Shown piece by piece: positions 4,576-54,919 of a stretch of 64,000 nt of DNA. This stretch comes from a virus: positions 60,492-124,491 of IMG/VR virus record IMGVR_UViG_3300036818_000105. One strand, 5' to 3'. Every line of letters begins with the position of its first letter. The first letter of the stretch is position 1. The notes beneath the pieces are model-generated. The model was not told the DNA's origin. It was given only the letters and a program-made list of their open reading frames with translations, and did not search any database. The position numbers were made by a program, and so were the translations under genes.

Positions 4576-4718
4576 CCTTGCACATGGCACCCGTCAAGCG
4601 GTCCCGGCTGCCCAGGTGGATCGGCCGCCTCATCGCCCGCTGGCAGCTGCGCAACTGGCACTACACCGGCGTTGTGGAGGACGACCCGTACGAGAATGAC
4701 GGGGAAGGCGACGGATGA
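4572..4718 (+). CDS. Small hypothetical protein (48 aa)
   Basis: GTGA overlap at the start and ATGA overlap at the end; fills the gap exactly. Confidence 0.45.
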   Translation: MTLHMAPVKRSRLPRWIGRLIARWQLRNWHYTGVVEDDPYENDGEGDG

Positions 4719-5470
4719 CGATCACAGAGCAGGTGCTTGACCTCGCCGAACCGGCGGATGACGCTGGCGATTCCAGCGGCGCGGACCTGGCGTCGGCAAC
4801 AGTCAGCCCGGCGGCGATGAAGTCGCCCGGCCTTCCCGTCCCGGACGACCCGGCGGCGATCTCCATCTTCACCGCGCACCGGGTTGACGAGGTGCTCCAC
4901 AAGCTCTCTCACGCCGCCGAGCGGATGAAGGCTTCCCGCTCCGCTTCCGGGGACCTGCGGAAGTACCACGCCTCCCTCCTCGCCGGGCACCTGCAGTCAG
5001 CCCTGAAGGCCGGGCATGACCTGGTGGCGAACATCCGCGAGCACTACCCGGACGAGGCTAAGGAACTGGACGCGGTCGGGGAGTCGGTAGGTCTGGCGAA
5101 GGCGGTCAGTTCCGAAGCTAAGGCGGCCACGACCGCGCACCTCCTCGAGACGACGCTGCACGAGCTGACTCACGGCGCCCGGCACGCCCTGCAGATGACG
5201 GAGGACACGCCGGAGGACGAGCAGGAGTTCAACGCCGACCACGCGGAGAAGCACCTCGGCGGGGCGGTGGAGCACGCGGGGAAGCTTGAGGAGCACTTCA
5301 AGGACAATTACCCGGACGTGGCGGGGTGGCTGAACGGGCTCACCGAGGTCACCGAGGACGCTGAGGAGAGCGACGGGGACGCCGAGCACGCCCGGTACAG
5401 CAAGGCCGGCGGCGGGACGATCGCGGCGCAGCTGGCGAACGCGGGGACGATCGGCGGGCAGCTGCTCTAG
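4715..5470 (+). CDS. His/Glu-rich helical protein with internal duplication
   Basis: Two AH...LH.L.H...HL..A...H/NYPD repeats. Confidence 0.7.
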   Translation: MTITEQVLDLAEPADDAGDSSGADLASATVSPAAMKSPGLPVPDDPAAISIFTAHRVDEVLHKLSHAAERMKASRSASGDLRKYHASLLAGHLQSALKAGHDLVANIREHYPDEAKELDAVGESVGLAKAVSSEAKAATTAHLLETTLHELTHGARHALQMTEDTPEDEQEFNADHAEKHLGGAVEHAGKLEEHFKDNYPDVAGWLNGLTEVTEDAEESDGDAEHARYSKAGGGTIAAQLANAGTIGGQLL

Positions 5471-5509
5471 CTGCCCGCATTTCGGGTGGCCCCGACCCGC
5501 ATGCTCCGG

Positions 5510-5515
5510 TATCGT
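5510..5515 (+). promoter_or_regulatory. Putative -10 element for the Y RNA/rsr cassette
   Basis: TATCGT about 12 nt upstream of the first Y RNA stem. Confidence 0.4.
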
Positions 5516-5526
5516 CTGGGGCAGCA

Positions 5527-5601
5527 CCTCTCCCGAAGTGCTGGCGCCGGTTCCTTCTCTTGCGTTGAAAACGACCCGCCGCCGATCCGTTGTCGGGAGG
5601 G
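5527..5601 (+). ncRNA. Short Y RNA lacking the tRNA module
   Basis: Terminal stem CTCTCCCGA/TCGGGAGGG; shares CCCGAAGTGC..GGC.CCGG and CCGA..CGTT.TCGGG with the adjacent YrlA; directly upstream of Ro60. Confidence 0.75.
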
Positions 5602-5615
5602 ATCAACTTCATGAC

Positions 5616-5763
5616 GGCGTGCCCGAAGTGCAGGCACCGGCTACTTCTTGGGAACTGAGAGTTGCGGGTTCAAATCCCGTCCGGACGGCCATGCCGCCCG
5701 GTGGCGCAACCTGGTAGCGCATCAGTACGAAAATGCCGGCACCGACTCGTTATCGGGCACGCC
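5616..5763 (+). ncRNA. yrlA: YrlA-type Y RNA with circularly permuted tRNA-like domain
   Basis: 11-bp terminal stem GGCGTGCCCGA/TCGGGCACGCC; T-arm GCGGG-TTCAAAT-CCCGT (5664-5680), closed acceptor-like stem (5681-5701), D-arm GCGC-AACCTGGTA-GCGC (5704-5720), ACTGA/TCAGT stem; adjacent to a TROVE gene. Confidence 0.9.
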
Positions 5764-5804
5764 AGTCGTGAAGTCAGGCCCTCCCCCTCACGTGAGGGGT
5801 TGAG

Positions 5805-7469
5805 ATGAGCAAGAACAACCGGGGAACCGTCCTCGCGGCCGTATCTAGCCCGGTCGCCAGCGAGGCTCGCCCGTCAGCGTCTACCGCTCTCGGCGCGCCG
5901 GGGTACGCCCGCGACGTGCAGTCAGAGCTGTTCCTTCTCGCCGCGTGCAACCTGCCCGGCGAGAAGGCGTTCCACGAGGGCACCGACGAGCGGGTGAAGC
6001 GGTTCCGTGACCTGGTGCGCGAGGCCTCGGCGGTCAGCCCGGACTGGACCGCCGCCCTGCTCCCGTACCTGCGCGGCCCCGGTAACCTGCGGCTCGCGCC
6101 CGTGGAGGCGGCGGCCGAGTACGCGTGGGCGCGGCGGGACGAGGCGGGAACGGGCCGCGAGGTCAGTAACCCGCCCAAGGCAACCGTCCGGCAGGTTGTC
6201 AACTCAGTGCTTCAGCGCGCCGACGAGCCCGGCGAGATCATCGCCTACTGGCTGGCCCGCTACGGCCGGAAGATGCCGATCGGCTTCAAGCGCGGTGTCG
6301 CCGACGCGGTACTGCGCCTCTACACCGAATGGTCGCTCCTGAAGTACGACACCCGCGAGGCCGCGGTGCGCTTCGGTGACGTGATCGAGCTGGTGCAGCC
6401 GCGGTACGTCAGCAAGGAGTACGGGACCTGGCGGGACGCCCTCTACAAGCACGCGATCGAGCGGCGCCACAACCGGGACAACCCGATCCCTGAGCCGCTG
6501 GCGATGATCCGGGCGAACGCGGCGCTGAACGCGGCGGCGGCCACCGACCCGAGGGTGCTGCTCGACACGGAGCGGCTGCTGGCCGCTGGGATGACGTGGC
6601 AGAACGCGCTGTCCATGGCGGGCGACAAGGTCGACAAGGGCAAGCTGTGGTCAGCCCTGGCCCCGATCATGGGCTACGACGCGCTGCGGAAGAACCTCCG
6701 CAACTTCGACCAGTCCGGCATGCCGGACGAGGTGGCCGAGGCGGTCGCGGCGCGGCTGTGCGACCCGGAGCAGGTGGCGAAGTCGCGCCTCTTCCCGTTC
6801 CGGTTCCTGTCCGCCTACCGCGCGGCCCCCTCGCTGCGGTGGGCGTACCCGCTGGAGAAGGCATTGAACGCGTCACTGTCGAACGTCCCCGCACTCAAGG
6901 GGCGGACGCTCGTGCTCGTGGACCGCTCGCCGTCGATGTGGGACCAGAAGTTCAGCGAGCACTCCGACATGCCGTGGGCGGACGCCGCGGCCTTGTTCGG
7001 CGCGGCGATCGCGCTGCGGGCCGAGCAGGCGGACCTCGTGGAGTTCTGGGGGATGTCGCGGCCGGTGCCGTTCCAGGCGGCCGACTCGGTGCTGAAGCTC
7101 ACGGAGCGGTTCAGCTTCCAGCCCGCGCCGGGCGGGACCGACATCCCCTCGGCGGTCGTCGCCCACCTGCGGCCCGATCACGCGCGGGTGGTCATCGTCA
7201 CCGACGAGCAGACGCAGGCCGGCTACCTGCCGTCGAACATGCGCTACCAGGGCGGCAGGCCCCCGATGCTGATTGACGACCTGGTGCCGAAGTCCAAGCC
7301 GCTCTACATGTGGAACTTCGGCGGTTACAAGCACGGCGCGGCGCCGTCCGGGACGGGAAACCGGGTCACGCTCGGCGGCTTGTCGGACTCCGCCTTCCGC
7401 CTTATCCCCATGCTTGAGGCGGGACGTGAATGCGACTGGAACGCCCTCTTCGGCGTCACTGCGGACTAA
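5805..7469 (+). CDS. rsr: Ro60/TROVE domain RNA-binding protein (Rsr) with C-terminal VWA domain
   Basis: SELFLLA, RADEPGE..AYW, KRGVADA, LLKYD, ALRKNLRNFD, KSRLFPFRFLSAY, VLVDRSPSM (MIDAS), GGTD, VIVTDEQ. Confidence 0.93.
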   Translation: MSKNNRGTVLAAVSSPVASEARPSASTALGAPGYARDVQSELFLLAACNLPGEKAFHEGTDERVKRFRDLVREASAVSPDWTAALLPYLRGPGNLRLAPVEAAAEYAWARRDEAGTGREVSNPPKATVRQVVNSVLQRADEPGEIIAYWLARYGRKMPIGFKRGVADAVLRLYTEWSLLKYDTREAAVRFGDVIELVQPRYVSKEYGTWRDALYKHAIERRHNRDNPIPEPLAMIRANAALNAAAATDPRVLLDTERLLAAGMTWQNALSMAGDKVDKGKLWSALAPIMGYDALRKNLRNFDQSGMPDEVAEAVAARLCDPEQVAKSRLFPFRFLSAYRAAPSLRWAYPLEKALNASLSNVPALKGRTLVLVDRSPSMWDQKFSEHSDMPWADAAALFGAAIALRAEQADLVEFWGMSRPVPFQAADSVLKLTERFSFQPAPGGTDIPSAVVAHLRPDHARVVIVTDEQTQAGYLPSNMRYQGGRPPMLIDDLVPKSKPLYMWNFGGYKHGAAPSGTGNRVTLGGLSDSAFRLIPMLEAGRECDWNALFGVTAD

Positions 7470-7489
7470 AGGGCCCGCGCGCAAGAAGG

Positions 7490-7547
7490 GCAAGCCCCGG
7501 ATGCCCGGCCCCGTAAGAGGGCCGGGCATCCGGGGCTTTTGCTTTTG
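7490..7547 (+). terminator. Intrinsic terminator after rsr
   Basis: AAGCCCCGGATGCCCGGCCCC / GGGGCCGGGCATCCGGGGCTT followed by a T-rich tail. Confidence 0.85.
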
Positions 7548-7602
7548 AGCGGGGACCGGCACGGCAGGGGCTGCGTGTGCCGGACCCCGCCAGAAATCCT
7601 AG

Positions 7603-7649
7603 TGCACGTGCATCCGCTCCGTGCATCTGCACGTGCATGAGGCTATGCT
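7603..7649 (+). promoter_or_regulatory. Putative late promoter/operator, copy 1
   Basis: TGCACGTGCAT-N7-GTGCATCTGCACGTGCATGAG-N2-TATGCT; same architecture at 31360-31406. Confidence 0.7.
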
Positions 7650-7689
7650 TGCCGCTAGGCAGGGGTGCCAGCCGTTTGAGAGGACGGAC

Positions 7690-8655
7690 GTGGGCACATC
7701 CCTGGACTTCGCCGCACCCAAGCTCGGCAGCGGCACCCGGTTCAAGAAGCTGTCCGCGACCCTCGCCGCCCGCGGCGCCCACGACCCCGACGCCCTCGCG
7801 GCCTACATCGGCCGGAAGAAGTACGGCTCGGGCATGGGCAAGCTCTCCCACCACAAGTCCCTCGCCGGCGACGACCTCGGCATCTACCTGTCCGAGACCA
7901 CGAAGGACGACCAGGGCAAGACCCTGACCTGCCCGGAGTGCAACTACTCCGGCCCCGCGAACCGCTTCGGTGCCTCCGGCGCGTCCCTCCAGAGCGCCCC
8001 CGGTGACCTCCGCACCCCCGCGCCCGGCACCGGCGGAGTCCGCAAGGGCGTGCCGCTGACGGTCAAGTCCGGCGCCGCCCACGCCCTCGCCAACGGCACC
8101 CGCGGCGCGGTCGAGCTCGCCACCGGCACGGCCCGCCGCCCCATCCGCGGCCCCATGGACGTGCTCGCCTCCCGCGCGGAGGACGGTGTCGCGGTCCTCA
8201 GGCACCGCAACGGCGGCGCGACGATCGCCACCCTCCGCAAGACCGACGGCGGCAAGTGGGTCGCCAACGTCAACGGCCGTGACCTCGAGCCCCGCGACCA
8301 CCAGCGCACCGCCCTCATGGAAGCGGTAGGCCAGTGGAACGGGTCCATCAGGGGCGCCGTCCGCCCGCAGGAGGCCCCTCTCCAGCACGAGCCCGTGCAG
8401 ACGCCGCTGATGGCCGAGTACGGCATCCCCGCGATGCGCTCCGCCGCGTTCGCCACCCCGACCACGGGAGCGGGCGACGGGCCGAGGATGACCAGCGCTG
8501 ACGGCGGGGGCACCGACGAGAACGGCCTGACCGCCAAGGGCCAGGGCATCTACAAGAAGCTGCTCGCCAAGGGCTTCCCCCAGGCCAGGGCGCTGAGCTT
8601 CGCGAAGAACAGCCAGAAGACGAAGGCCGGCACGTTCGGCAAGGTCGCGGCCTGA
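7690..8655 (+). CDS. Head-module hypothetical protein (CxxC)
   Basis: GTG start after GAGGA; DPDALAAYIGRKKYG motif; upstream of the protease. Confidence 0.7.
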   Translation: MGTSLDFAAPKLGSGTRFKKLSATLAARGAHDPDALAAYIGRKKYGSGMGKLSHHKSLAGDDLGIYLSETTKDDQGKTLTCPECNYSGPANRFGASGASLQSAPGDLRTPAPGTGGVRKGVPLTVKSGAAHALANGTRGAVELATGTARRPIRGPMDVLASRAEDGVAVLRHRNGGATIATLRKTDGGKWVANVNGRDLEPRDHQRTALMEAVGQWNGSIRGAVRPQEAPLQHEPVQTPLMAEYGIPAMRSAAFATPTTGAGDGPRMTSADGGGTDENGLTAKGQGIYKKLLAKGFPQARALSFAKNSQKTKAGTFGKVAA

Positions 8656-10760: not shown

Positions 10761-11672
10761 ATGCCCACTGGCGCGAGAGGCTACAGCGACTCCCCGCGGC
10801 TTACCGTATCCGAGCTGCTCAAGGACCCGCTTGTCATCCCGGCGCTGATCCTCGACATCACGCAGAACGAGTTCATCATGGACTCCGTCCTGCGGATGGG
10901 CGGGGCGGCCCCCTCCGGCGCCGTGCGGTACTCGGAGAGCACCCCGCTGTACGCGGACGACTTCCCCGAGATCCGGCCCGAGTTCGGCGAGGTGCCGGTC
11001 GTCCCGACCTCGATCGGCGTGCCCCGCGTGGTGTTCTCCCACGAGCGGGCCATGGCGATCATGGTGTCCGACGAGATGCGCCGCCGTCAGGCGATTGACC
11101 CGGTAACCCGGCAGTTGCTGCAGGTCAAGAACACGATGGTCTACTCGTGGAACACCGCTTTCTACTCGGCGGTGGTCGCGAACGCGTCCATTCAGACGCT
11201 TGCCGTCGCGAACCCGTGGGCGTCCGCCGCGGCGACGACCCGCGCGGACATCGCGCAAGCGGTCTACCTGGTCGAGAACGCGAACATCGTCTCGCCGTCG
11301 GGCGTGACGCAGTGGCTGGGCTTCGAAGCCGACACGATGATCATCAACCACGGCACGAAGAACACGCTGCTGCAGTCGAGCACCTTCGCGGCGCCGTACA
11401 TCGGCGACATCGCGAGCGAGAACCTGCAGTACACCGGCGTGCTGCCGAACAAGATCTTCAACCTCGACGTGCTCGTCTCACGGCAGGTGCCCGCGGGCAA
11501 CGCGATCGTCATGCAGCGGCACCGCTGCGGCGGCTATGCCGATGAGCTGCCCTTTATAGCCGGACCTTTGTACCGGTCCGAGGAGCGCAAAGTCTGGCGC
11601 AGTGACACACAGCGATCTTCTGCGATTTTTCTGGACCAACCGTTGGCCATAGCGTTGCTGAGTGGCGTCTAA
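10761..11672 (+). CDS. Major capsid protein
   Basis: 303 aa; GAVRY.E, EFGEVP, VSDEMRRR, C-terminal LDQPLA..LSGV; synteny. Confidence 0.85.
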   Translation: MPTGARGYSDSPRLTVSELLKDPLVIPALILDITQNEFIMDSVLRMGGAAPSGAVRYSESTPLYADDFPEIRPEFGEVPVVPTSIGVPRVVFSHERAMAIMVSDEMRRRQAIDPVTRQLLQVKNTMVYSWNTAFYSAVVANASIQTLAVANPWASAAATTRADIAQAVYLVENANIVSPSGVTQWLGFEADTMIINHGTKNTLLQSSTFAAPYIGDIASENLQYTGVLPNKIFNLDVLVSRQVPAGNAIVMQRHRCGGYADELPFIAGPLYRSEERKVWRSDTQRSSAIFLDQPLAIALLSGV

Positions 11673-37401: not shown

Positions 37402-38070
37402 ATGGCAGCACGAGTAATGGAGCCGGGCCCGAGCAGCCGCCGCGCCGCGGCGAACCTCCGGCGCATCCGGCAAGAGCGCGGGCTCTCCTACGCGGAGCTC
37501 GCCCGGCGGCTGGCGAAGACCGGGCACCCCATCCTCGACACGGGCCTCCTCAAGATCGAGAAGGGGGAAAGGCGCATCGACGTAGACGACCTCGCCGCCC
37601 TGGCCGTCGCCCTTGACGTGACGCCCAACCGGCTGCTGCTGCCCGAGATGGACATCGAGCACGCGGCGGACCCGGCCCGGCTCACGCCCTCCGTGCAGGA
37701 GACTCCCCCGGCACTCTGGGCGTGGGCGACCGGGGAGGCGCCGCTCGGCCAGTCGCCCGCCACGGCTGCCGCGGAAAGCGATGAGCGGGCCCGGGAGGTC
37801 GTTTTCAGCCGGGAGAACAGGCCGCACCGCTGGGCGGTGCCGCCGCCTCCCCGCACGGCCGGGCAGAGCGTGACCCTGACGGGCCTGGCCGCGCTCGTCG
37901 CCGACGCGTTCCGGCAGGGGATCAGCACCGACGGGATCCGCTCGGCGGTCGAGGGCGGAATCGTCGCGGCCCTCTCCTCATTCGCGCCCGCGAGCGGGGC
38001 AACCAAGATAGAGGTCACCAGCGACGGCAAGGTCACCGTGCGGCTGAACTACGCAGGGGAGGCCGGGTGA
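37402..38070 (+). CDS. XRE-family immunity repressor
   Basis: NLRRIRQERGLSYAELA...KIEKGERRIDVDDL.ALA.ALDV.PN.LL; coupled to the integrase. Confidence 0.85.
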   Translation: MAARVMEPGPSSRRAAANLRRIRQERGLSYAELARRLAKTGHPILDTGLLKIEKGERRIDVDDLAALAVALDVTPNRLLLPEMDIEHAADPARLTPSVQETPPALWAWATGEAPLGQSPATAAAESDERAREVVFSRENRPHRWAVPPPPRTAGQSVTLTGLAALVADAFRQGISTDGIRSAVEGGIVAALSSFAPASGATKIEVTSDGKVTVRLNYAGEAG

Positions 38071-39401
38071 CGATCTACGACAGGTGGCACAAGTCCCACC
38101 CCGGGCCGGACGAGGAAGAGTGCCGCAGGCACCGGATGGTCCCGGCCGCCCAGCACCTCCGGGGCGACCGCTGGCAGGTCCGCTGGCGCGACCTGAACGG
38201 GAAGCAGAAGAAGAAGAACTTCGCCAAGAAGGAGGGCGGCAACCCTGACCTCCACGCGGACGCGTTCGAGGCGAAGATCGCGGCCGAGCTCGACGCGGGG
38301 ACCTACGCCGACCCCAGGAGCGGCGACTCGACGTTCGAGGAGTACGCCGAGGCGTGGCGCGCGGCCCGGACCCACGGCGAGACGACCAGCGTCGGCGTGG
38401 AGTACCAGTTCCGGCTCCACGTTTACGCCGACCCGGGCAACCCTGGCCGCACCAGGCGCCACGGCGGCCCGGCGCTCGGGCACAACAAGCTCCGGGACCT
38501 GGCCAGGCGCCCGAGCCTGTGCCAGAACTGGATCGCCGGCATGAAGCTGATGGACTCCACCAAGGTCAAGGTGATCGACCACGTCTCGGAGGTCTTCGCC
38601 GCCGCCGTGGAGGACGGCTTCATCCCGCGCAACCCGCTTCACGCCAAGTCCGTCAGCCGCCCCAAGGCACCCAGGCGGGAGCCGGACCTGCTGACGCTCC
38701 CCGAGCTAGAGGCGCTGTCGCTCGCGCTGCGCCACATGCCCGGCTGCAAGGACGGCTGCGACCAGTGCGGCCCGTCGCGGTACGAGGTACTGCCCTACCT
38801 CGGCGCGGCGACCGGCGAGCGCCAGGGCGAGATGTTCGCGATCGACGCGGACAAGGACATCGACTTCCTGCGCAAGACGCTCCACGTCCGGCGGCAGGTG
38901 AAGATCATCCACGGGAAGCAGGTCTTCGCGCCGATCAAGAACGACAAGGTCCACTCCGTTCCGCTGACGGACGAGGACTGCGTGATGCTGTCGGAGTACA
39001 TACGGGCCTACCCTCCGGAGAAGGTGACGCTCCCCTGGGTCAGGGCCGGCGGCGGCCCGGTGACGTTCACGCTGCTGCTGTCGCGCGGCCCGGGGCTGCC
39101 GATGCACCGCAAGATGGTCAACGGCCGGTGGAAGGCGGCCCTGCGCCGCGCGGGCATCGCCGCGGACCGCTATCACATGATGCACATCACGCGCCACATA
39201 TTCGTGTCCGCGTGCCTGTCGGCCGGGATCAGCGTCCGGGCGGTCGCGGAGTTCATCGGCGACACCGAGGTAACCGTCCAGGCGACCTACTCGCACATGA
39301 TGCCGGACGACCGCGACCGCGCCCGGAGGGCCAAGGGGCAGTTCTTCGCCCGCCCGGACGAGGGGCACTTGAGTGCGCCTCATCTTTCAAAAGTGCCCTA
39401 G
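38067..39401 (+). CDS. int: Tyrosine integrase
   Basis: TGERQGE (R), IKND (K), HITRH, G..VRAVAEFIGD, TYSH (Y). Confidence 0.92.
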   Translation: MTIYDRWHKSHPGPDEEECRRHRMVPAAQHLRGDRWQVRWRDLNGKQKKKNFAKKEGGNPDLHADAFEAKIAAELDAGTYADPRSGDSTFEEYAEAWRAARTHGETTSVGVEYQFRLHVYADPGNPGRTRRHGGPALGHNKLRDLARRPSLCQNWIAGMKLMDSTKVKVIDHVSEVFAAAVEDGFIPRNPLHAKSVSRPKAPRREPDLLTLPELEALSLALRHMPGCKDGCDQCGPSRYEVLPYLGAATGERQGEMFAIDADKDIDFLRKTLHVRRQVKIIHGKQVFAPIKNDKVHSVPLTDEDCVMLSEYIRAYPPEKVTLPWVRAGGGPVTFTLLLSRGPGLPMHRKMVNGRWKAALRRAGIAADRYHMMHITRHIFVSACLSAGISVRAVAEFIGDTEVTVQATYSHMMPDDRDRARRAKGQFFARPDEGHLSAPHLSKVP

Positions 39402-45609: not shown

Positions 45610-46054
45610 CGTAGAACTCCTCTCTGATCATCCGTGCCTGCTCAATCGTCGACTGGCGGATCTCGACCGGCGCGCGGTGCCCGTGAGGGTCCACATGGTC
45701 GATGTCGTCCTGCATGTGGTCGACGTGCAGGACGCAGCGCTCCACGCTCTCGTCCGGGTGGACCATCGGCTTGGGGCAGCGGAGCGGCGAGTCCCTGGCG
45801 ACGGGCACCTGCCGGGCAAGCCTCGTGACCTCAGCCTGCGCCACCGCGATGGCGTCGCGTACGGCGTCGCAGGCATCAATGGCATCGGTGAGCTGCTTCT
45901 GGGCGCGGGCGAGCCATGCCGCGCTCTCGGAGGGCACGGGCTTCGACACCTCAACGGCGAGGATGATCAGCGTGTCGTCCAGGATGTTGGCCAGGTCATG
46001 CTTGCGGTCACACGCAGCGCGGGCTGCGTCTCTAGCCGGCCTCACGTCAGGCAT
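45602..46054 (-). CDS. Hypothetical protein
   Basis: Coupled overlaps. Confidence 0.55.
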   Translation of the reverse strand: MPDVRPARDAARAACDRKHDLANILDDTLIILAVEVSKPVPSESAAWLARAQKQLTDAIDACDAVRDAIAVAQAEVTRLARQVPVARDSPLRCPKPMVHPDESVERCVLHVDHMQDDIDHVDPHGHRAPVEIRQSTIEQARMIREEFYGG

Positions 46055-46451
46055 CGGCCGCCCCCTTCCCGGTCAGTGCGGCAAGGATCGCCTCGTACTC
46101 GCCACAGGGGAATATGACGCCTTCCCCGTCCTCGTTGAGGCAGGCAGTACAGATGACCGCAGTCGGCTTGTCCCTGCACCGCCAGGATCCGTCGTCGTCC
46201 TCGAAGTGCGCGTCCCCGTCGTAATCCGGTCCGTGAGCGCATCCGGGGCTGCCGTTGAGGCACATCACCAGCCCGTACAGCTGGACGGGGCGGTGGGACT
46301 TCAGGGCTGCCTCAAGGGCCTTCAGGAGCCGCCGCACGTCGCCCTCGGCCACGTCATGCTCGATGGTGTACTCCGTGTAGGTGGCCAGGTCGAGCAACCT
46401 GGGGTAGTCCTCGACGTGAGTGAGGACCGTGCGCAGGAGCTTCGCGTTCAC
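46047..46451 (-). CDS. Hypothetical Cys-containing protein
   Basis: Coupled overlaps; CTAC...FPC. Confidence 0.55.
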   Translation of the reverse strand: MNAKLLRTVLTHVEDYPRLLDLATYTEYTIEHDVAEGDVRRLLKALEAALKSHRPVQLYGLVMCLNGSPGCAHGPDYDGDAHFEDDDGSWRCRDKPTAVICTACLNEDGEGVIFPCGEYEAILAALTGKGAADA

Positions 46452-47801: not shown

Positions 47802-48169
47802 GCGTTCCCTCCTCCAGCCGCCGGGGCGGCTCCCTCGTTCCAGGTCAGTTCAAAGTCGAGCAGCCCGAGCGCGGCAGCCCCGGCCACCTCCGTGACGTCT
47901 TCCGAGTCGCCCGCGTCAAGGGCGGCCGTCCACCCCGCTACCTCTTCGGGCGTCTCGGCGTGCCACCAGCGGAACGGCGCGTGCTTCTCGTGCGCGGTGA
48001 TCACGTCCACGTCGACGGAGACGGCCACCGCGTCCGGGCCGATCGCGTCAGCGATGGCGAGGGCAGCGGCGCACCCCGTCAGGCTCGCCTGCTTGCCGCG
48101 GATGACGTGCTCTGGGGCGACATGGACGTAAGTGGTGTCGCGGGGCCACGGGGGCAGGGGCCCGGTCAT
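47798..48169 (-). CDS. Hypothetical protein
   Basis: Coupled overlaps. Confidence 0.55.
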   Translation of the reverse strand: MTGPLPPWPRDTTYVHVAPEHVIRGKQASLTGCAAALAIADAIGPDAVAVSVDVDVITAHEKHAPFRWWHAETPEEVAGWTAALDAGDSEDVTEVAGAAALGLLDFELTWNEGAAPAAGGGNA

Positions 48170-48354
48170 CGCTCGCCTGCTATCAGCGTGAGGTCTTCCG
48201 GGTACGTCGCCATGACGCCCCGGACGCCGGGGTACTGGACGAACACGTAAACCGTGCTCGCTGCGGCGATCGTCCCGTGCTCCGGCTCGCTGCCAGCCGG
48301 GTGATAGGTCACGGCCTTGCCGACGTGCTCGCGGGCCTCGTCAAGCGTCATCAT
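48166..48354 (-). CDS. Small SH3-like hypothetical protein
   Basis: VG..V.Y...E.G.I.....YVFVQY....AT.PEDL. Confidence 0.6.
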   Translation of the reverse strand: MMTLDEAREHVGKAVTYHPAGSEPEHGTIAAASTVYVFVQYPGVRGVMATYPEDLTLIAGER

Positions 48355-48607
48355 TACCCGCCGCCTCCTTTTCGTCCGCCGCGTGCCATTCCCGTACCTC
48401 GCGGAGGGTGCCGAGCACGGACAGGTGCCGGGTGACGTCCGCCGCCCGCTCGGCGGGGGTGCCCGTGTCGTCCCCGTCGCCGAGTCCGCCATTGACCCGC
48501 TTGCGCAGGAACGCGACCTCGCCCTCGATGTCGTCCAGGGCGGCCAGCGCGCGCCGCCGGGCCACCTTGTCGGCGTTGGCGTGCTCGCGGTTGGGGTAGC
48601 CGGTCAC
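48341..48607 (-). CDS. Hypothetical protein
   Basis: Coupled overlaps. Confidence 0.5.
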   Translation of the reverse strand: MTGYPNREHANADKVARRRALAALDDIEGEVAFLRKRVNGGLGDGDDTGTPAERAADVTRHLSVLGTLREVREWHAADEKEAAGNDDA

Positions 48608-48960
48608 AGTGCCGCCTCTCCCAGGTAGGCGCGGGCAATGGCGAGGGCACCGTTCCAGTCGGGCACCGCGAAGTCCTGATCACAGCTACGCCCCGCGAAA
48701 GTGCTCAGCCAGTCTGCGACGGCGAGGGCAACGAGGGGACTCATGCCTGCGATGTGCTCGGCGTCGGCGTGGTCGGCTTTCCATTCCTTGCGCCCGCTGA
48801 ACGAGACGTGCTTGCGGTCGCGCAGGCGCCCGTCGTTGATGACCGAGCACCCTTCGGAGCCCATGCACATCTGGTGCCAGGGTCCGGGAGACGCAGCCTG
48901 CGCCCTCTCGCGCATCAGGGCAGCGGCCCGGCGGATCTGGCCCTCGGGAGACTCAGCCAT
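48604..48960 (-). CDS. Ead/Ea22-like phage protein
   Basis: A.AASPGPW...DAEHIA..SP.VALAVADWL. Confidence 0.6.
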   Translation of the reverse strand: MAESPEGQIRRAAALMRERAQAASPGPWHQMCMGSEGCSVINDGRLRDRKHVSFSGRKEWKADHADAEHIAGMSPLVALAVADWLSTFAGRSCDQDFAVPDWNGALAIARAYLGEAAL

Positions 48961-48961
48961 G

Positions 48962-49207
48962 TCAGCCCTCCGTCCCTGCGGCCTGTACCGCCTCGGCAGG
49001 CTTGTGCTCGGGGCAGTAGTCCCTGTCGTACCGCCACCCTAGGTTGCTGCGCACGTGCGTCCAGCCCGCCTTCGCGGCCCGCTTGCGGAGGGCCGCGCGG
49101 GTCTCGCCGGACGTGGGAGGGATGCCCTCTTCGCCGTCGAAGAACTGGAAGCAGTCGCGGGGGTAATTGCAGGTCAGCTGGCACCTGCGGAACTCGAAGG
49201 CGGTCAC
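48962..49207 (-). CDS. Small Cys protein
   Basis: C....C...GW...DYCPEH. Confidence 0.55.
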   Translation of the reverse strand: MTAFEFRRCQLTCNYPRDCFQFFDGEEGIPPTSGETRAALRKRAAKAGWTHVRSNLGWRYDRDYCPEHKPAEAVQAAGTEG

Positions 49208-49431
49208 GGGGTCACCTGCCCCGGCGTCACCGCGCGGGCGACAGCCTCGGCGCGACGCTCGGCCTCAGCCCACGCCCTGGCGAACTGCTCGCGCTGCTCG
49301 GCGTTGAAGCGCAGCATCACGCAGTTCGGGTCGACAGACAGTCCCACCCGGTCGCCGACAACGCCCAGCGTCCACGTCTTGCCGTAGGCGTCCACGCCGC
49401 CATCGACCCGGCCTTGCAAGTCACTTGCCAC
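49204..49431 (-). CDS. Hypothetical protein
   Basis: Coupled overlaps. Confidence 0.5.
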   Translation of the reverse strand: MASDLQGRVDGGVDAYGKTWTLGVVGDRVGLSVDPNCVMLRFNAEQREQFARAWAEAERRAEAVARAVTPGQVTP

Positions 49432-49618
49432 CTGGCACCTTCCACGGGTCCCCGTCCGACGCGCGCGTGACCACAGTCGCCTTCTCGCCTGTCATCAGGG
49501 ACACGGCACTCCCGTTGACGAACGCCGCATAATCCTGCGCCCAGCCCTTGCCCGTCTTGACCTTGAACTCCTCCGCCTTCCGGCCTGGAACCTCAAGGCG
49601 GACGCCCCATTCAGCCAT
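49421..49618 (-). CDS. Hypothetical protein
   Basis: SD AGGAG. Confidence 0.5.
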   Translation of the reverse strand: MAEWGVRLEVPGRKAEEFKVKTGKGWAQDYAAFVNGSAVSLMTGEKATVVTRASDGDPWKVPGGK

Positions 49619-49630
49619 TGCCTTCTCCTT

Positions 49631-49939
49631 TCAGCATCGCGGGCACCGCTTGTCCCGCTCGTTCTCGTGCCCGCCGCGCCCGTGCGCCTGGATTCGCTCC
49701 ACGTCGGCCAGTGCCTGACCGGAGGCGACATAGGCGCGGCAGTCGGTCAGGGTTCCCACATGCGAGTCCGCGACGATCCCAGTCGGCCGGTGCGTCACCG
49801 ACCACGGCGTTCCCGGCTCGTCCTCGCGGGTGAGGTCCCAGGTCTTGTCCTTCGTGGTCGCCGACCAGCACTCGCGGCGGCCGCCACGGGACAGGAGCAT
49901 CGTCTTGTCGACGGGGGCGAGGGGGACGGCAGTCTTCAT
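49631..49939 (-). CDS. Hypothetical protein
   Basis: Coupled overlap. Confidence 0.5.
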   Translation of the reverse strand: MKTAVPLAPVDKTMLLSRGGRRECWSATTKDKTWDLTREDEPGTPWSVTHRPTGIVADSHVGTLTDCRAYVASGQALADVERIQAHGRGGHENERDKRCPRC

Positions 49940-50268
49940 CGTCGGCTCTCTTCGTTCTTGGCCCGGACGATGAGCGGCCCGAAGAGGCCGCCCGTCCCGC
50001 GCTCGACCGCGTAGCCTGCTGCCTCGATCGCCTCGGCGTAGCGGGCCTGCTCCCTTACCTGCCGCTCAACAGTGGCGTCCGTGATCATGAAGCTGTTGCC
50101 GTCCTCGTGGTACACGGCGACGGTCCCGTCAGTACGGCCGCCGACGACGTAGCCCCGGGTGCGGCTGCTGAACCCCCGGACGCGCGTCGCGTTGCGCGCG
50201 GAGCGCCCGAATCCGGCTTTGCGCAAGAGCGCGGAGATGCCCTGCGGGGTCGGCTTAGTCTGTGTCAC
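49936..50268 (-). CDS. Hypothetical protein
   Basis: GTGA overlap; SD GGAG. Confidence 0.55.
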   Translation of the reverse strand: MTQTKPTPQGISALLRKAGFGRSARNATRVRGFSSRTRGYVVGGRTDGTVAVYHEDGNSFMITDATVERQVREQARYAEAIEAAGYAVERGTGGLFGPLIVRAKNEESRR

Positions 50269-50540
50269 GGCCGGACTCCCCTCGTCACACTGCCCGCCGA
50301 GACGTGCACCAGCCGGTGCAGCCCGTCCGCCTCCCGCCGCCAGAGCCTCAGGCCGCCGCAGCCGCACGGGCACGGGCCGTCGGCGATCCAGCAGCCGTGG
50401 TCCTTCAGGCTGCTCCCGAGGTAGGTCACCGGGGTTCCGGGGCCGATAGCGGCGGGGACAGCGACGGCGGCGGCGGTTGCCCTGCGAAGGGCGGGGACCT
50501 GGGGGATGTCCTGCGTGGGGGCGTAGCCGGGGTGCGTCAC
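50265..50540 (-). CDS. Hypothetical protein
   Basis: PGTPVTY.GS...CPCGC. Confidence 0.5.
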   Translation of the reverse strand: MTHPGYAPTQDIPQVPALRRATAAAVAVPAAIGPGTPVTYLGSSLKDHGCWIADGPCPCGCGGLRLWRREADGLHRLVHVSAGSVTRGVRP

Positions 50541-50542
50541 GG

Positions 50543-50761
50543 TCAGCGTCCCTCGGCGTCGTACCAGGGTGAGATCTCGGCCCGCGCGTCATCGAGGGCG
50601 ACCCGCAGGCCGTCAGGGCAGTCGTCGCACTCCTGGAGCGCGACCATGGCCGCGACGAACCGCTCCGCCTTGGCGTAGGTGATCTTCTTCGGCGCTGGCA
50701 GGCGCGTGGCCCGTGCCGACGCCCTCGCGCGCTTCAGCCCGTCGCCCATCTTGACTCCCAT
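50543..50761 (-). CDS. Hypothetical protein, first gene after the leftward promoter
   Basis: Downstream of TTGACA-17-TACTGT. Confidence 0.5.
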   Translation of the reverse strand: MGVKMGDGLKRARASARATRLPAPKKITYAKAERFVAAMVALQECDDCPDGLRVALDDARAEISPWYDAEGR

Positions 50762-50775
50762 CGTCAACTAATATC

Positions 50776-50827
50776 GCGAACAAGATTGACAGTAGTCCGG
50801 TCTGGTAGTCGTGTCAACTTTGTTCGC
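50776..50827. promoter_or_regulatory. Leftward sigma70-type promoter inside an inverted-repeat operator
   Basis: GCGAACAAGATTGACA / TGTCAACTTTGTTCGC; minus-strand TTGACA (50817-50812), 17 nt, TACTGT (50794-50789). Confidence 0.65.
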
Positions 50828-52329: not shown

Positions 52330-52682
52330 GACCCGCCCCCGTCAAGGGCCCGCAGGACACTGCCCGCGAGGTCCCGCGCGACCTTGAACATGAGGATGTC
52401 GCTGTCCCCGTACTGAGCGAGGAACGCGCCGATCCCCTCGCGGGCGCCTGCGATCTTCGCCTCGGCGTCGTCGGCGCGCGCCCGCTGGGAGGCGAGCCCG
52501 GCGTCGATCACCCGGGCGATCCTGTCCCCGAGGGCGGCAAGCTCGGCTTCCGCTTTTTCGGCCCGCCCCCGTTCGAAGGCGACCGCGTCCTGCGCCCGCT
52601 CCAGCAGCGGCCCGTACACGGCGGGCCCGCCTCCGTCCGGTGCCGGACTGGCCGGGGCGGGAGCAGCCTCAGTCCCGGCCAT
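52326..52682 (-). CDS. Coiled-coil hypothetical protein
   Basis: Coupled overlaps. Confidence 0.5.
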   Translation of the reverse strand: MAGTEAAPAPASPAPDGGGPAVYGPLLERAQDAVAFERGRAEKAEAELAALGDRIARVIDAGLASQRARADDAEAKIAGAREGIGAFLAQYGDSDILMFKVARDLAGSVLRALDGGGS

Positions 52683-53445
52683 CGGGCACCCCGATCCCGG
52701 CGGCCTCACGGAGGCCAGCAGCACAGCGTCGGTAGGCCCGCCCGCTGATGCTGCCGTCCCTCTGGACCGTGCTCTTGTCGGCCAGCAGGGCGTCTGCCTC
52801 CCACTGGGTGGCGAGGGCGGCCAGTTCGGACGGCGGCTGCGGATCGCCCGTCAGGCGCGAGTCAATCGCGGTGAGCAGCTGCACGGCGAGGTCGTGCGGG
52901 CGCGCGGGCGTCACGAGCCACATGCCGTCCCCAGCGTCAGAGTGTTCCGCCTGGTCGACGTCGACCAGGATTTGCCTGCCGGCGAACGCGGCAGCAAGGG
53001 ACCTGACGGTAACGGGCGCGGGCTGGGGCGTGACGCCGAGCGCGGTGTCGGTGAGGATCTCGCGGAGCTGGCGGGCGGTGACGGCCGACGCGTGGGCCGC
53101 GCCCATGTCGAACTCCGAGTCGGTGTTGCGGCAGCGCTCCACGGTGTCGTCCAGGCTGGCCACGAGGGCGCAGAGCCTGACCTTGACCCGCGCGAACTCG
53201 TCGGCGCGCGCGCCCCGCTGGCTGCTCTCGCGGCTCGTCTCCTGGAGGACCGTCTTCATGGCGTCGAGCTGCTCACGGACGTCGCCGGGCGCGGGCTGCG
53301 GCTGCTGCGCGGCGATGGCGTCGAATCCGCCCCGGACCGTTCCCGGCAGGTCTTCCCACTTCCCGGCCGGCACGTTGCAGACGATCTCAGGGACTGCGGC
53401 CCGCCACACCTCGTACACCGCCTGCCCTGGCGTCGCGGCGGTCAC
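52669..53445 (-). CDS. Hypothetical protein
   Basis: TPGQA.YE.W motif; coupled overlaps. Confidence 0.55.
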   Translation of the reverse strand: MTAATPGQAVYEVWRAAVPEIVCNVPAGKWEDLPGTVRGGFDAIAAQQPQPAPGDVREQLDAMKTVLQETSRESSQRGARADEFARVKVRLCALVASLDDTVERCRNTDSEFDMGAAHASAVTARQLREILTDTALGVTPQPAPVTVRSLAAAFAGRQILVDVDQAEHSDAGDGMWLVTPARPHDLAVQLLTAIDSRLTGDPQPPSELAALATQWEADALLADKSTVQRDGSISGRAYRRCAAGLREAAGIGVPDGRD

Positions 53446-53819
53446 GACGTCGCCTCGCTGACAGCGTCGTCCCAGTCGCCCTCGTGCAACTGGGACGACG
53501 GGCCGCTGCCGTCGTCGTCAAGGTCGGGGTCGTCCTCGGCCGCGATCTCGTCGGCTTCCCGGTCCTCGGCTTCGGCGGCGAGCCGCTCCCGGCCCGCGTC
53601 AGTGAGCCGGTACTCATCGTCCGGCAGCGTGAGTTCCGCCGCCGTAACGACGGCATCGGCGACGGCCCTCCACCTCACCCGTTCCTCTTCGGCGATGAAC
53701 CGCCACTCGACTGCCGCCGCGTCCGCCCCAAGCTCGTAGTGGACGGCGTAGGCGGCGATCGCCGGGAGGTCAGGTGACGTGCTTGCGAGCGCCTCCAGGC
53801 CTGTCGCTCCGGCGGTCAC
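53442..53819 (-). CDS. Acidic hypothetical protein
   Basis: GGAGG + GTG. Confidence 0.55.
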   Translation of the reverse strand: MTAGATGLEALASTSPDLPAIAAYAVHYELGADAAAVEWRFIAEEERVRWRAVADAVVTAAELTLPDDEYRLTDAGRERLAAEAEDREADEIAAEDDPDLDDDGSGPSSQLHEGDWDDAVSEATS

Positions 53820-54457
53820 GATTCCTCCCTGGTCCGCTCGAGCCACTCGTCCCCGGTCTCGGTCCCGTTCCACTGGTCCTCCGGCTCGTTGTCGTCCGCG
53901 TCGGGAATGGCGGCCAGGACGCGTTCTTTCACGGCCTCGAGGTCGCCGCGCGAGACGTCGACCCACATGGCGTACAGGTCCCGCATGGCGTACAGGTCCC
54001 GCGCCTGGCGGGTGACGACCATGCCGAGTGTCTGCGCGGCCCGCCGGACCCTGGCGAGCTCGGCCCGGGCGTCTGCCGCCTCGGACCGGGCCGAGGACTG
54101 CGCGGCGTCCTGCCCGGTCATCGCCAGCACGACCGCGATGAACACGCGGTCCTTGACCCGCTGGTGCTCCGGCAGGTCCCGGTAGGGAACCATGCACGGA
54201 TGCGTTTTCAGGCGCGAGTCTTTCCGCGGACCGTGCTTCCAGCCTTGCGCTTGCCTGCTGCGGACCCACGTCTCGTGCAGTTCCCCCGGCGTCGCGCCGT
54301 CGCGGATCGCGCGGATCCCGGCGACGGTAACCGCGTGGGCCTCCGCGTCCCCGGCATCCCCGGGAAGGGACGGGGCCGGGTCGCCGTGCAGCGCCTGGAG
54401 CTCGGCGTTAGCGGCCCAGGCGACGGCGGCGACCTCCTCGTCGGTGTAGGCGGTCAC
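53816..54457 (-). CDS. RyR (ryanodine receptor repeat) domain protein
   Basis: LHETWV..R.AQGW.HGP.KD...KTHPCMVPY.DLP..QR.KD..F. Confidence 0.85.
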   Translation of the reverse strand: MTAYTDEEVAAVAWAANAELQALHGDPAPSLPGDAGDAEAHAVTVAGIRAIRDGATPGELHETWVRSRQAQGWKHGPRKDSRLKTHPCMVPYRDLPEHQRVKDRVFIAVVLAMTGQDAAQSSARSEAADARAELARVRRAAQTLGMVVTRQARDLYAMRDLYAMWVDVSRGDLEAVKERVLAAIPDADDNEPEDQWNGTETGDEWLERTREES

Positions 54458-54899: not shown

Positions 54900-54919
54900 T
54901 TCGTTTTCCTTTCAGGGAC

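Follow-up and report, generated by a model that had tools for sequence, protein, structure and literature searches.

A phage-borne Ro60 and two-Y-RNA cassette whose tRNA-like module is absent from some sister loci

Composition of the cassette

Positions 5510-7547 of the window (the whole 64,000-nucleotide stretch analysed here, from the genome of a soil phage) hold one compact unit made of a Ro60 gene and two Y RNAs. Its elements follow one another in the order -10-like hexamer, RNA1, RNA2, hairpin with the ribosome-binding site (RBS), Ro60/Rsr gene and 20-bp terminator. The original prediction described a phage Ro60 cassette with one tRNA-mimicking and one stem-only Y RNA, and family searches, folding, a covariance model and comparative data bear it out. 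The elements that it named (a -10, shared stem motifs, a TROVE gene and a terminator) are all present where it put them or close by. The cassette is a bacterial RNA-quality-control unit of an already known type and adds no new kind of element. Phage-borne Ro60 with Y RNAs has been published (Chen et al. 2014, PMC4201824; phiLo, 2025, PMC12135203), and the pairing of a tRNA-like with a hairpin Y RNA, together with the decoy idea, is also in print (Hughes et al. 2020, PMC7790460). Mycobacteriophage Giles, offered earlier as a precedent, does not figure among the 22 phages in Table S2 of Chen et al. 2014. Megablast of positions 5400-7600 against cultured phages returned no match. When public sequencing runs were searched for the cassette sequence, the share of sampled cassette words in soil and other metagenomes was at most 0.13, and no RNA run was listed as containing it.

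The gene at 5805-7469 (+ strand) encodes a Ro60/Rsr orthologue of 554 aa with a TROVE domain (a HEAT-repeat ring) and a von Willebrand A (vWA) domain. Its designation as a TROVE gene agrees with matches to Pfam PF05731 (E 5.1e-12, 46.1 bits against a cut-off of 23) and to PHROG 850, annotated as 'RNA-binding protein' (E 1.6e-38, residues 25-541). A sequence search of the PDB returned the Ro60 of phage phiLo (9KOP/9L5Y, E 6.4e-21). The AlphaFold model of the protein (pLDDT 82.3, pTM 0.78) gave full-length Foldseek matches to 9KOP, 1YVP and 2NVO with TM values of 0.60-0.74, and the top 12 Foldseek matches are all Ro60 structures aligned along their full length (9KOP, 9L5Y, 1YVP, 2NVO, 9NEN-9NFA, 1YVR and 2I91; E 1.6e-19 to 5.7e-12). 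The MIDAS motif of the vWA domain is intact (D373-x-S375-x-S377, G444-T445-D446, T466-D467), and its residues are invariant in 20 relatives. The segments DRSPS (373-377), GGTD (443-446) and TDEQT (466-470) align to DVSGS, GGT and TDEQT of phiLo Ro60. The RNA region has a GC3 of 0.58-0.64, compared with 0.93 in the Ro reading frame.

The cassette is bounded on its left by a hairpin at 5454-5478 (+) that spans the stop codon of the 251-aa gene upstream, with arms GCGGGCAGC and GCTGCCCGC followed by ATTT. Judged from its sequence, this hairpin may terminate the upstream transcription unit; the terminator scan did not call it, its T run being too short. Both arms are paired in spurious Rfam alignments. 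The putative -10 corresponds to TATCGT at 5510-5515 (+), a hexamer of the actinobacterial TANNNT type. Sister loci (6 of 6) and more distant loci (7 of 10) have such a hexamer 9-16 nt 5' of their first Y RNA, and the sequence farther 5' shows no conservation among loci. A promoter scan based on the E. coli-type consensus found no site in 4600-8000. Transcription likely starts near 5522-5524, as predicted from the hexamer.

A leader hairpin (5781-5804, +) precedes the Ro gene, and GAGGGG in its 3' arm (5794-5799) is likely the RBS. Hairpins with a purine-rich 3' arm, 1-16 nt 5' of the Ro start, are predicted in all 17 phage and cellular loci, although their sequences differ. The right edge is formed by an intrinsic terminator (7492-7547, +), which the terminator scan resolves as the strong signal anticipated earlier. 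Its stem-loop (7492-7538) has 20 pairs, 16 of them G-C, and a 7-nt loop, and is followed by the T-rich tail TTGCTTTTGA. Long G+C-rich hairpins also occur 3' of the Ro stop codon in L003, L002, L012, L009 and L005. A phage moron is an autonomous cargo unit in the late-gene region, with its own promoter and terminator. With regard to such autonomy, the terminator of the cassette is clear, and its putative promoter consists of the conserved TANNNT hexamer, with no site in the consensus scan.

The two Y RNAs and the tRNA-like module

RNA1 (5523-5601, +) is a short Y RNA of the YrlB/Yrn2 type by its fold and by the RNAalifold consensus of five sister copies. The basal helix pairs 5528-5536 with 5593-5601, the CGAA motif occupies 5532-5541, the upper helix pairs about 5543-5550 with 5576-5583, and a pyrimidine-rich apical region spans 5551-5575. 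Fold and consensus show these two shared helices and the apex and nothing else, in line with the predicted stem-only RNA with a pyrimidine loop. The first 19 nt are invariant among relatives. Nucleotide identity to relatives is 0.70-0.94 in RNA1 and 0.72-0.88 in the Ro reading frame, whereas the 87 nt just 5' of the -10 hexamer show 0.59-0.71. Because its sequence is almost invariant, covariation in RNA1 alone is weak, with compensatory change in 3 of 22 predicted pairs and in none of those in the two main helices.

RNA2 (5606-5774, +; core 5613-5761) is a YrlA-type Y RNA with an extended basal stem, a CGAA motif at 5622-5631 and a 3' motif at 5748-5757. The stem recognised at the outset is present but longer than first described, as 5606-5626 pairs with 5753-5774 in 21 pairs with one bulged A. 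Duplex folding gives a basal stem of about 17-22 pairs, with compensatory changes, in 6 of 6 sister loci; a single unpaired base in the 3' strand is found in four of the six, and mismatches occur in L002 and L007. The minimum-free-energy z-score of RNA2 is -2.41. Its 3' end lies 31 nt 5' of the Ro start codon on the same strand, within the few kb that Chen et al. 2014 take as a criterion. Both RNAs follow the promoter and precede the Ro start on a single predicted transcript whose RBS is covered by a hairpin, an arrangement that would also suit a leader in which RNA1 and RNA2 only control Ro protein synthesis and are not stable trans-acting RNAs. This explanation is very unlikely, since the homologous RNAs of Mycobacterium smegmatis, in the same position, are processed from one precursor and bound by Rsr (PMC4201824), RNA2 is a YrlA homologue, and its 21-pair basal stem resembles a release site.

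The stem motifs noticed as common to both RNAs are found in each of them. CCCGAAGTGC is found on the + strand at 5532 and 5622, and an unrelated third copy lies at 59757 (-), which gives three matches against 0.37 expected, a number reached in 0 of 100 shuffles. CGTTRTCGGG occurs at 5588 and 5748 only (two matches where 0.39 are expected, a count attained in 7 of 100 shuffles). Set against the GNCGAAN0-1G motif of the YrlA 5' end, both RNAs read CCCGAAG, so that CGAA and the next G are present and the leading G is a C. A covariance model built from RNA1 alone (R1) finds RNA2 at 5613-5761 (37.8 bits, E 1.2e-6). Over the whole 124-kb genome the two RNAs are the only strong matches of R1, which also detects Y RNAs 5' of the Ro genes in most relatives. 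In a 33-row alignment that was fitted to the model and therefore favours pairing, the shared helices covary, with 94.4% of cells paired and compensatory change in 12 of 16 pairs. None of 500 shuffles reached the observed values of pairing or compensation, and pairing in slid controls does not exceed 52.6% of cells. Both RNAs of a locus carry the same variant of the Ro-binding motif in 20 of 20 loci. A single origin of the CCCGAAGUGC motif type, the 5' motif of the phage, was considered on the Ro tree and set aside, as a 23-row tree places the type in one clade (99/97) and a 26-row tree splits it into two groups; one clade is not rejected by the AU test (p 0.385).

Such conservation bears on whether the cassette could be decaying passenger DNA, acquired by chance from a host chromosome and functionless in the phage. 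The architecture, identical to that of cellular rsr loci, is what such an origin would leave behind. Even so, this explanation is scarcely credible. The reading frame is intact, with its high GC3 and its MIDAS and TROVE residues kept, and RNA1 exceeds the 87 nt upstream of the hexamer in identity. The protein and both RNAs are retained in nine same-motif loci with compensatory helix changes, and frameshifts or loss of pairing in most relatives were not seen.

The apical part of RNA2 is a tRNA-like module (5655-5725, +), closed in the Rfam RF02553 alignment by a helix of 5655-5659 with 5721-5725. It comprises a T arm (5664-5680, loop UUCAAAU), a closed acceptor-like stem-loop (5681-5701; nine pairs with one A.C mismatch, loop CAU) followed by U G, and a D arm (5704-5720) with GG in its loop. 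The permuted order of T arm, closed acceptor-like stem and D arm, already remarked upon in the original prediction, is that of the Rfam YrlA consensus, and the whole model (1-114) is aligned. The match to YrlA (RF02553) at 5637-5742 has an E of 5.5e-6 in a 501-nt search and 3.2e-7 per genome. The proposed search with YrlA covariance models recovers RNA2 in this way at 35 bits, a score below the gathering score of 69 bits, and at gathering level Rfam has no match over the whole 64-kb window. YrlA-like RNAs beside the actinobacterial and actinophage Ro genes examined all score 25-49 bits, so the gathering cut-off excludes this entire lineage. ARAGORN found no tRNA in the window or in the whole 124-kb genome. 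Standard annotation, with the Rfam cut-off and tRNA finders, overlooks both RNAs in this lineage. YrlA-like matches 5' of Ro on the same strand were found in L003, L005, L009, L012, L014, L016-L023, L049 and L051, as well as in the cultured phages Alone3, Kela and VanLee. An encoded G-CCA in the acceptor loop of RNA2 was discarded as probably due to chance; it recurs only in the 89% relative L003, and the loops of L005, L009 and L012 differ.

Four of the nine sister cassettes (L002, L004, L007 and L059) lack the tRNA-like module and five have it, which is the modest novelty of this set. In these four, Ro, the two Y RNAs and their shared motifs are retained, and a search of the complete 127.8-kb genome carrying L004 with the YrlA model gave nothing at E <= 1. 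What every copy retains is the Ro-binding helices together with the YUMCUUC stretch; the tRNA-like core is not among these parts. With a like protein family, Ro-binding motif and short RNA, the nine cassettes amount to a natural experiment on the module. Its absence from four of them suggests that the tRNA-like part is optional and disfavours tRNA mimicry as the core function.

These comparisons weigh on the proposal that the cassette serves mainly as a tRNA decoy, with Ro-held RNA2 tying up tRNA-cleaving defence nucleases or further host proteins that bind tRNA during infection. The well-formed T arm, D arm and 9-pair acceptor-like stem would serve such a role in a phage without tRNA genes of its own, and Hughes et al. 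[quoted passage not shown] With the module missing from four sister cassettes, no YrlA-model match at E <= 1 in the complete genome with L004, and universal parts that are the Ro-binding helices and YUMCUUC rather than the tRNA-like core, a decoy is improbable. Chen et al. 2014 left the purpose of the tRNA-like domain explicitly open (PMC4201824).

Genomic setting and mobility

The cassette was placed earlier in the head operon; it does lie in the head-gene block, at the boundary of two transcription units and not inside one operon. To its right, 7550-7689 (+) is a native intergenic region of that block, outside the cassette, with a hairpin, CTAG, two TGCACGTGCA repeats and TATGCT. These elements also precede the homologous gene in the cassette-less relatives L029, L033, L035, L036 and L038. 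The real start of the next head gene is probably GTG 7690; tblastn matches of L029 and L035 start at residues 27 and 24 of the downstream 344-aa ORF. The sequences flanking the cassette in the window are shared by L003/L039 only. No Ro is present at this site in L029, L035, L036, L037 and L038, whose major capsid protein is 91-98% identical. L038 and L004 belong to one contig, on which about 60 kb separate the cassette from the head block. In the region of the cassette site, L038 has a Mom-like gene, and L035 and L037 have a protein with an ADP-ribosyltransferase domain. The cassette is thus present or absent at one site among syntenic relatives, the pattern used as a criterion for morons.

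The genes just 5' of the cassette (664, 506, 72, 219 and 251 aa) gave nothing at E <= 0.001 in Pfam and PHROGs. In a protein atlas, the 506-aa neighbour had no usable match, and the only lead for the 664-aa neighbour was to ADP-ribosyltransferase clusters (score 0.90). A pattern search of genome contigs for the motif pair returned nine matches, of which two are real loci (L049 and L051); L048, L050 and L052-L056 were rejected as chance matches, with no Y-like fold and no nearby Ro.

The phage genome of 124 kb has an integrase and no tRNA genes, and its temperate signs include a tyrosine integrase, repressor-like HTH proteins and a Gp3-like directionality factor. These features are compatible with lysogenic conversion, in which the cassette, expressed from the prophage, would give the lysogen the tolerance to UV, oxidative stress or stationary phase that has been reported for bacterial Rsr, and would have no lytic role. 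The cassette has its own host-type -10 hexamer and terminator inside the late-gene region and is absent here in close relatives, and its promoter, RNAs and leader are built like chromosomal rsr loci. Rsr is known to aid survival after UV and in stationary phase (PMC12135203). On the other hand, the downstream neighbour has its own promoter-like region, which obscures the timing of any read-through, and many Ro phages in public collections are large, carry Ro in tRNA arrays and show no sign of lysogeny in the stretches examined. Lysogenic conversion is a possible role, although we would not expect it to be the correct one.

Proposed working and known systems

On balance, we favour the reading that the cassette is a complete Ro60/Y RNA ribonucleoprotein locus, probably from a high-G+C actinobacterium, that is now a moron-like movable unit with its own promoter and terminator. 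For this unit we infer the transcript ends, processing, Ro binding, effector and benefit to phage or lysogen. A single transcript would start about 7 nt past the -10 hexamer and end at the terminator. Cleavage would release RNA1 (about 75-80 nt) and RNA2 (about 150-170 nt) from the Ro mRNA, with the 21-bp basal stem of RNA2 as the probable cutting site. Ro would bind the conserved CGAA-containing internal loop and the helix common to both RNAs. Through the conserved single-stranded YUMCUUC stretch and the apical module, the particle would be anchored to a host effector, for which PNPase, a 3'-5' exonuclease, is the most likely candidate, leading to directed decay or quality control of structured RNA. 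Profile scans of the 132 called ORFs of the phage found no PNPase, RtcB, RNA ligase or CCA-adding enzyme, which argues that the effector must be a host protein. Tethering of PNPase is the model in print both for bacterial Ro60/Y RNA (PMC4201824) and for phiLo (PMC12135203).

A further and more tentative idea is that the Y RNA consists of a fixed chassis and an exchangeable apical cartridge, so that Ro-Y particles would not depend on tRNA mimicry to work, with the tRNA-like module as an add-on. The chassis would comprise the basal stem, the CGAA loop, the upper helix and the YUMCUUC stretch. Within one phage-borne lineage, the cartridge would be a full tRNA mimic, an unrelated hairpin or nothing, and the tRNA-like add-on would be chosen by the particular tRNA-directed enzymes or defences of the host. 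If this idea holds, the presence/absence series makes the role of the tRNA-like domain directly testable. Such a handle matters in a field where the role of Ro60/Y RNA particles in bacteria and phages is poorly understood, though their structures are well described. As both RNAs of each locus share one motif variant, it may also be that the phage Ro and its Y RNAs form a private pair insulated from the host Ro system.

Among known systems, the rsr-yrlBA-rtcBA locus of Salmonella Typhimurium, of the RF02553 seed lineage, has the same YrlA design, with a Ro-binding stem, T arm, closed acceptor-like stem and D arm, paired with a shorter YrlB. Its Y RNAs lie downstream of rsr, whereas those of the phage lie upstream, no RtcB or RtcA was found in the phage, and RNA2 scores half the gathering cut-off of that lineage's model. 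Bxz1-like phages, phage G and CcrColossus are tRNA-rich lytic phages. CcrColossus has 279,967 bp and phage G has coordinates above 400 kb, in contrast to the 124-kb cassette phage with its integrase and no tRNA gene. Ro60-adjacent Y RNAs have been reported in 254 bacteria and 22 phages (PMC4201824), the latter, in Table S2, including Bxz1-like mycobacteriophages (cluster C1), Bacillus phage G and Caulobacter phage CcrColossus. For these three, Table S2 gives Ro60 with a YrlA-like RNA 159-2062 nt away on the same strand, and a second, stem-only Y RNA is not listed in that table (PMC4201824). The cassette shows that rsr loci can also be stand-alone cargo of a tRNA-less phage with an integrase.

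In Thermus phage phiLo, as in the cassette, Ro60 is accompanied by two upstream RNAs with CGAA motifs, Yrl1 and Yrl2 (PMC12135203). Its Ro60 is the best PDB match to the phage protein by sequence and by fold (TM 0.63/0.74), despite an identity of about 24% and a host of a different phylum. In phiLo, both of these Y-like RNAs are bound by Ro60, which also complexes with host PNPase; the RNAs are characterised as Y RNAs of stem-bulge-stem form, and the paper does not use the term 'tRNA-like' (PMC12135203).

The rsr locus of M. smegmatis resembles the cassette in being of the actinobacterial type with two Y RNAs, one tRNA-like and one simpler, upstream on the same strand (PMC4201824). Every species studied is described as having two or more Y RNAs, of which one resembles a tRNA and another is a hairpin whose loop is rich in pyrimidines (PMC4201824). 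The M. smegmatis RNAs are made from one precursor, which in the cassette is predicted, and their acceptor-like stem has 7 pairs, compared with 9 including one mismatch in RNA2 (PMC4201824). The 5' motif is CCCGAAGUGC in the phage-borne locus and CCCGGUGCG(A/C)AGG in the M. smegmatis type. YrlB of M. smegmatis and the first Y RNAs of Streptosporangiales keep a T arm, which phage RNA1 has lost.

The cassette is also like the chromosomal rsr loci L016-L025 of Streptosporangium, Nonomuraea, Planotetraspora, Actinomadura and Actinophytocola. Their Ro proteins are 54-59% identical to that of the phage, both RNAs carry the CCCGGUGCG(A/C)AGG / GAUCUCGGG motif pair, and the first Y RNA retains its T arm. 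The order of elements is identical and several spacers are conserved. In the Streptosporangiales, Actinomadura and Actinophytocola loci as in the cassette, a -10 is followed by the first Y RNA, a ACAACTTCAG spacer, YrlA, a complementary CTGAAG, a Shine-Dalgarno hairpin and ATG. Because its architecture equals that of the Streptosporangiales chromosomal loci, the cassette looks like a captured host locus, and whole rsr loci, promoter and leader included, appear to move between actinobacterial chromosomes and phages.

Layout of the cassette and its protein product

The source record is a complete virus genome of 124,491 bp with 127-bp terminal repeats and 70.7% G+C, of which the window forms the second half (60492–124491). 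The Ro60/Y RNA cassette is a 2.1-kb unit. On its left, a 251-aa gene ends with its stop codon at 5470; on its right, from about 7550, a conserved intergenic region leads into the capsid genes. Every part of the cassette lies on the + strand: a TATCGT hexamer (5510–5515), the short RNA1 (5523–5601), the YrlA-type RNA2 (5606–5774), a hairpin containing the likely ribosome-binding site (5781–5804), a Ro ORF of 554 codons (5805–7469), and a terminator (7492–7547) in which a T-rich tail follows a stem of 20 pairs. The RNA1/RNA2 region is judged non-coding because its GC3 is 0.58–0.64 whichever of the three frames is read, compared with 0.93 for the Ro ORF.

Profile searches place the ORF product in Pfam TROVE (E 5e-12) and PHROG 850 (E 1.6e-38). 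The closest solved structure by sequence is Ro60 of Thermus phage phiLo (9KOP/9L5Y; E 6.4e-21), whose von Willebrand A MIDAS residues align with those of the window protein and are invariant across an alignment of 20 relatives. An AlphaFold model built from this alignment (pLDDT 82.3, pTM 0.78) can be superposed along its entire length on the Ro60 proteins of phiLo, Xenopus, Deinococcus, and humans (TM 0.59–0.74, E 1.6e-19 to 5.7e-12). Sequence matches and predicted fold thus identify the product as a Ro60/Rsr orthologue.

The two Y RNAs and the optional tRNA-like module

RNA2 carries a T arm, a closed acceptor-like stem, and a D arm, in the permuted order characteristic of the YrlA family. 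The covariance-model search that had been proposed as a check gave a divided answer: the whole Rfam YrlA model aligns at 5637–5742 (35 bits, E 5.5e-6), but the score is half of the curated cut-off of 69, which is why a default Rfam search is silent. Such scores are typical of the lineage, as the YrlA-like RNAs adjoining Ro in related phages, Streptosporangiales chromosomes, and cultured actinophages all reach 25–49 bits. The loop of the acceptor-like stem-loop (5681–5701; 7-nt 3' strand, G, CCA, U GC, 7-nt 5' strand) encodes a discriminator and CCA. This feature is common to the window and its relative L003 only, and is probably due to chance.

RNA1 lacks any tRNA-like part. A covariance model derived from five RNA1 copies only (16 pairs) matches RNA2 of the window end to end (37.8 bits, E 1.2e-6), and it also picks up Y RNAs that precede Ro in most relatives. 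Elsewhere in the complete phage genome it has no match of note, the next best ones scoring 16.8 and 15.4 bits. The shared design starts with a basal helix and a conserved internal loop (5' CCCGA-AGUGCW-GG, 3' GAYYCGUUR-UCGGG), followed by an upper helix of 7–9 pairs, a conserved single-stranded YUMCUUC, and a variable apical part. A 33-row alignment, biased towards pairing because its rows were fitted to the model, has 94.4% of its cells paired and compensatory changes at 12 of 16 pairs. None of 500 shuffles reached these values, and sliding the partner columns lowered pairing to 39–53%. Independent duplex folds of the RNA2 flanks in six sister loci gave basal stems of about 17–22 pairs that differ in sequence with compensating changes; four have one unpaired 3'-strand base, and L002 and L007 have mismatches instead. 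In RNA1 alone, covariation was not seen in the main helices, since this RNA is too conserved.

Nine loci have the window's variant of the Ro-binding motif, and five of them (the window, L003, L012, L049, and L051) carry a tRNA-like RNA2. Another hairpin or almost nothing replaces it in L002, L004, L007, and L059, and the complete genome holding L004 contains no YrlA-model match at E <= 1. The constant parts are Ro, the two helices, the internal loop, and the YUMCUUC stretch; the more distant loci L005 and L009 carry two or three tRNA-like Y RNAs each. On this comparison of sequences, the module is optional in these cassettes, a presence/absence pattern for which no report was found among the open-access papers searched.

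This variation bears on function. In the published model, a Y RNA is held by Ro at its conserved helix and loop and tethers the protein to PNPase for decay of structured RNA (PMC4201824, PMC12135203, PMC7790460). Here, one transcript would start from the conserved -10 hexamer, a 21-pair stem would mark the release point of RNA2, both RNAs would be bound by Ro, and a host exonuclease would be recruited. A search of public sequencing runs turned up no RNA run containing the sequence. Alternatively, RNA2 could act through its tRNA likeness as a decoy against tRNA-directed nucleases, an idea of anticodon-nuclease inhibition that derives from Hughes et al. 2020 (PMC7790460). That reading is weakened by the four sister cassettes that do without the module.

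Genomic setting and mobility

Genes for the major capsid protein (PHROG 1650, E 1.7e-67), adaptor, connector, tape measure, and tail follow the cassette, and the gene for a Mu-type portal (54086–55492 on the whole genome) is located 5 kb before the start of the window. The predicted placement within the head operon holds for the neighbourhood, but the cassette lies where two transcription units meet. The region past its terminator, with a hairpin, CTAG, TGCACGTGCA repeats, and TATGCT, is also conserved in relatives that lack the cassette, which sets the cassette end at about 7547. Only one relative, L003/L039, has the cassette at the same place (Ro 89% identical). Five others (L029, L035, L036, L037, and L038) share the head genes, with capsid proteins about 91–95% identical, and lack Ro in the stretch before the homologous head gene; that stretch is filled by other genes, among them a Mom-like one in L038. 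Together with L004, L038 belongs to a single 127.8-kb contig, whose Ro cassette lies about 60 kb from the head block. The open-access papers searched yielded no account of Ro cassettes as movable cargo in head-gene regions.

The TGCACGTGCA(T) repeats, in two or three copies with CTAG before and a TATGCT-type hexamer after, precede the first capsid-block gene in the window (7600–7650) and in L029, L033, L035, L036, L038, and L039, with or without a Ro cassette. The region looks like a predicted operator and promoter for the head genes. For the 344-aa ORF (7621–8655), GTG 7690 is the probable start codon. GAGAGGA stands six bases before it, and sequence matching L029 and L035 sets in at residues 27 and 24, respectively. 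The major capsid protein (10761–11672) is 91–99% identical among L029–L039, and neighbouring head proteins only 47–86%. For a 664-aa head-region protein (211–2205), the only atlas lead is to ADP-ribosyltransferase clusters (score 0.90). A 747-aa protein of L037 (2207–4447; PF03496, E 4e-13) is 72% identical to its residues 23–232, and a 338-aa head-region protein of L035 (476–1489; PF03496, E 1e-13) has no tblastn match to it.

Temperate-type genes include a tyrosine integrase adjoining an HTH gene (38067–39401), HTH proteins, and a Gp3-like directionality factor. Expression from a prophage is plausible, given an apparently autonomous unit and these signs of lysogeny. No tRNA gene was found in the 124,491-bp genome, and no PNPase, RtcB, RNA ligase, or CCA-adding enzyme among 132 scanned ORFs, called by a simple GC3 filter that may miss genes. 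Whole-genome coordinates 45868–46200 encode an Acb2/Tad1-hairpin-domain protein, 48050–50818 a 922-aa protein with a LAGLIDADG domain, and 52468–53658, just before the portal gene, a TnpB/OrfB_IS605 gene.

Kinship with cellular rsr loci

The Ro-binding motif exists in two variants, CCCGAAGUGC/CGUURUCGG(G/C) in nine loci and CCCGGUGCG/GAUCUCGGG in 11, and all RNAs of a locus share one variant in each of the 20 loci where at least two Y RNAs could be read. In the Ro tree, CCCGAAGUGC-type loci form one clade with 23 rows (99/97) and two groups with 26 rows; an AU test does not reject one clade (p 0.385). Co-evolution of Ro with its Y RNAs is possible.

Several loci extend this picture. On L005, a second viral contig, the Ro locus groups with chromosomal Ro of Nonomuraea (L018, L023; 100/98) and comes with two complete tRNA-like Y RNAs whose motif is of the cellular type; it is thus a separate rsr capture by a phage or prophage. 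L051, a 96.7-kb contig in a MAG labelled Acholeplasmataceae, carries a complete cassette of the window's motif type; it is probably mis-binned, since its composition (67% G+C over the 5-kb stretch examined) does not fit that label. In the cultured phages VanLee, Alone3, and Kela, YrlA-like matches of 33–47 bits that carry no annotation lie upstream of Ro-like genes (L028 2579–2655 and 2744–2807; L026 6436–6550; L027 2031–2101); one of these matches, in VanLee, overlaps an annotated tRNA-Arg(tct) at 2704–2775. In six of nine cellular rsr loci examined (L016, L017, L020, L021, L022, and L025; about 1470–1500 in each), the hairpin loop over the ribosome-binding site reads CGGUGCG. This word is identical to the Ro-binding motif of their Y RNAs and is missing from the window's hairpin; the loop may hence be a candidate site for rsr autoregulation by its own protein.

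Protein families, fold, covariance model, and comparative loci agree on a phage Ro60 cassette with two Y RNAs; the original identification was correct, and the system is of a known kind. Chen et al. 2014 (PMC4201824) count 254 bacteria and 22 phages in which a YrlA-like RNA neighbours Ro60. Their Table S2 gives 20 Bxz1-like mycobacteriophages, Bacillus phage G, and CcrColossus; mycobacteriophage Giles, cited earlier as precedent, is absent from it. The 2025 phiLo paper (PMC12135203) describes a phage Ro60 that binds two upstream Y-like RNAs and host PNPase. The present cassette adds comparative value and no new mechanism.

The closest cellular Ro proteins (54–59% identity) come from Streptosporangium, Nonomuraea, Planotetraspora, Actinomadura, and Actinophytocola, whose rsr loci run from a TANNNT hexamer through a first Y RNA, ACAACTTCAG, and a full YrlA to a complementary CTGAAG, a hairpin over the ribosome-binding site, and ATG. 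Their first Y RNA retains a T arm as its only tRNA-like part, whereas phage RNA1 has none. The order of parts is otherwise that of the phage cassette, and even the spacers are similar, so the phage unit looks like a whole captured rsr locus.
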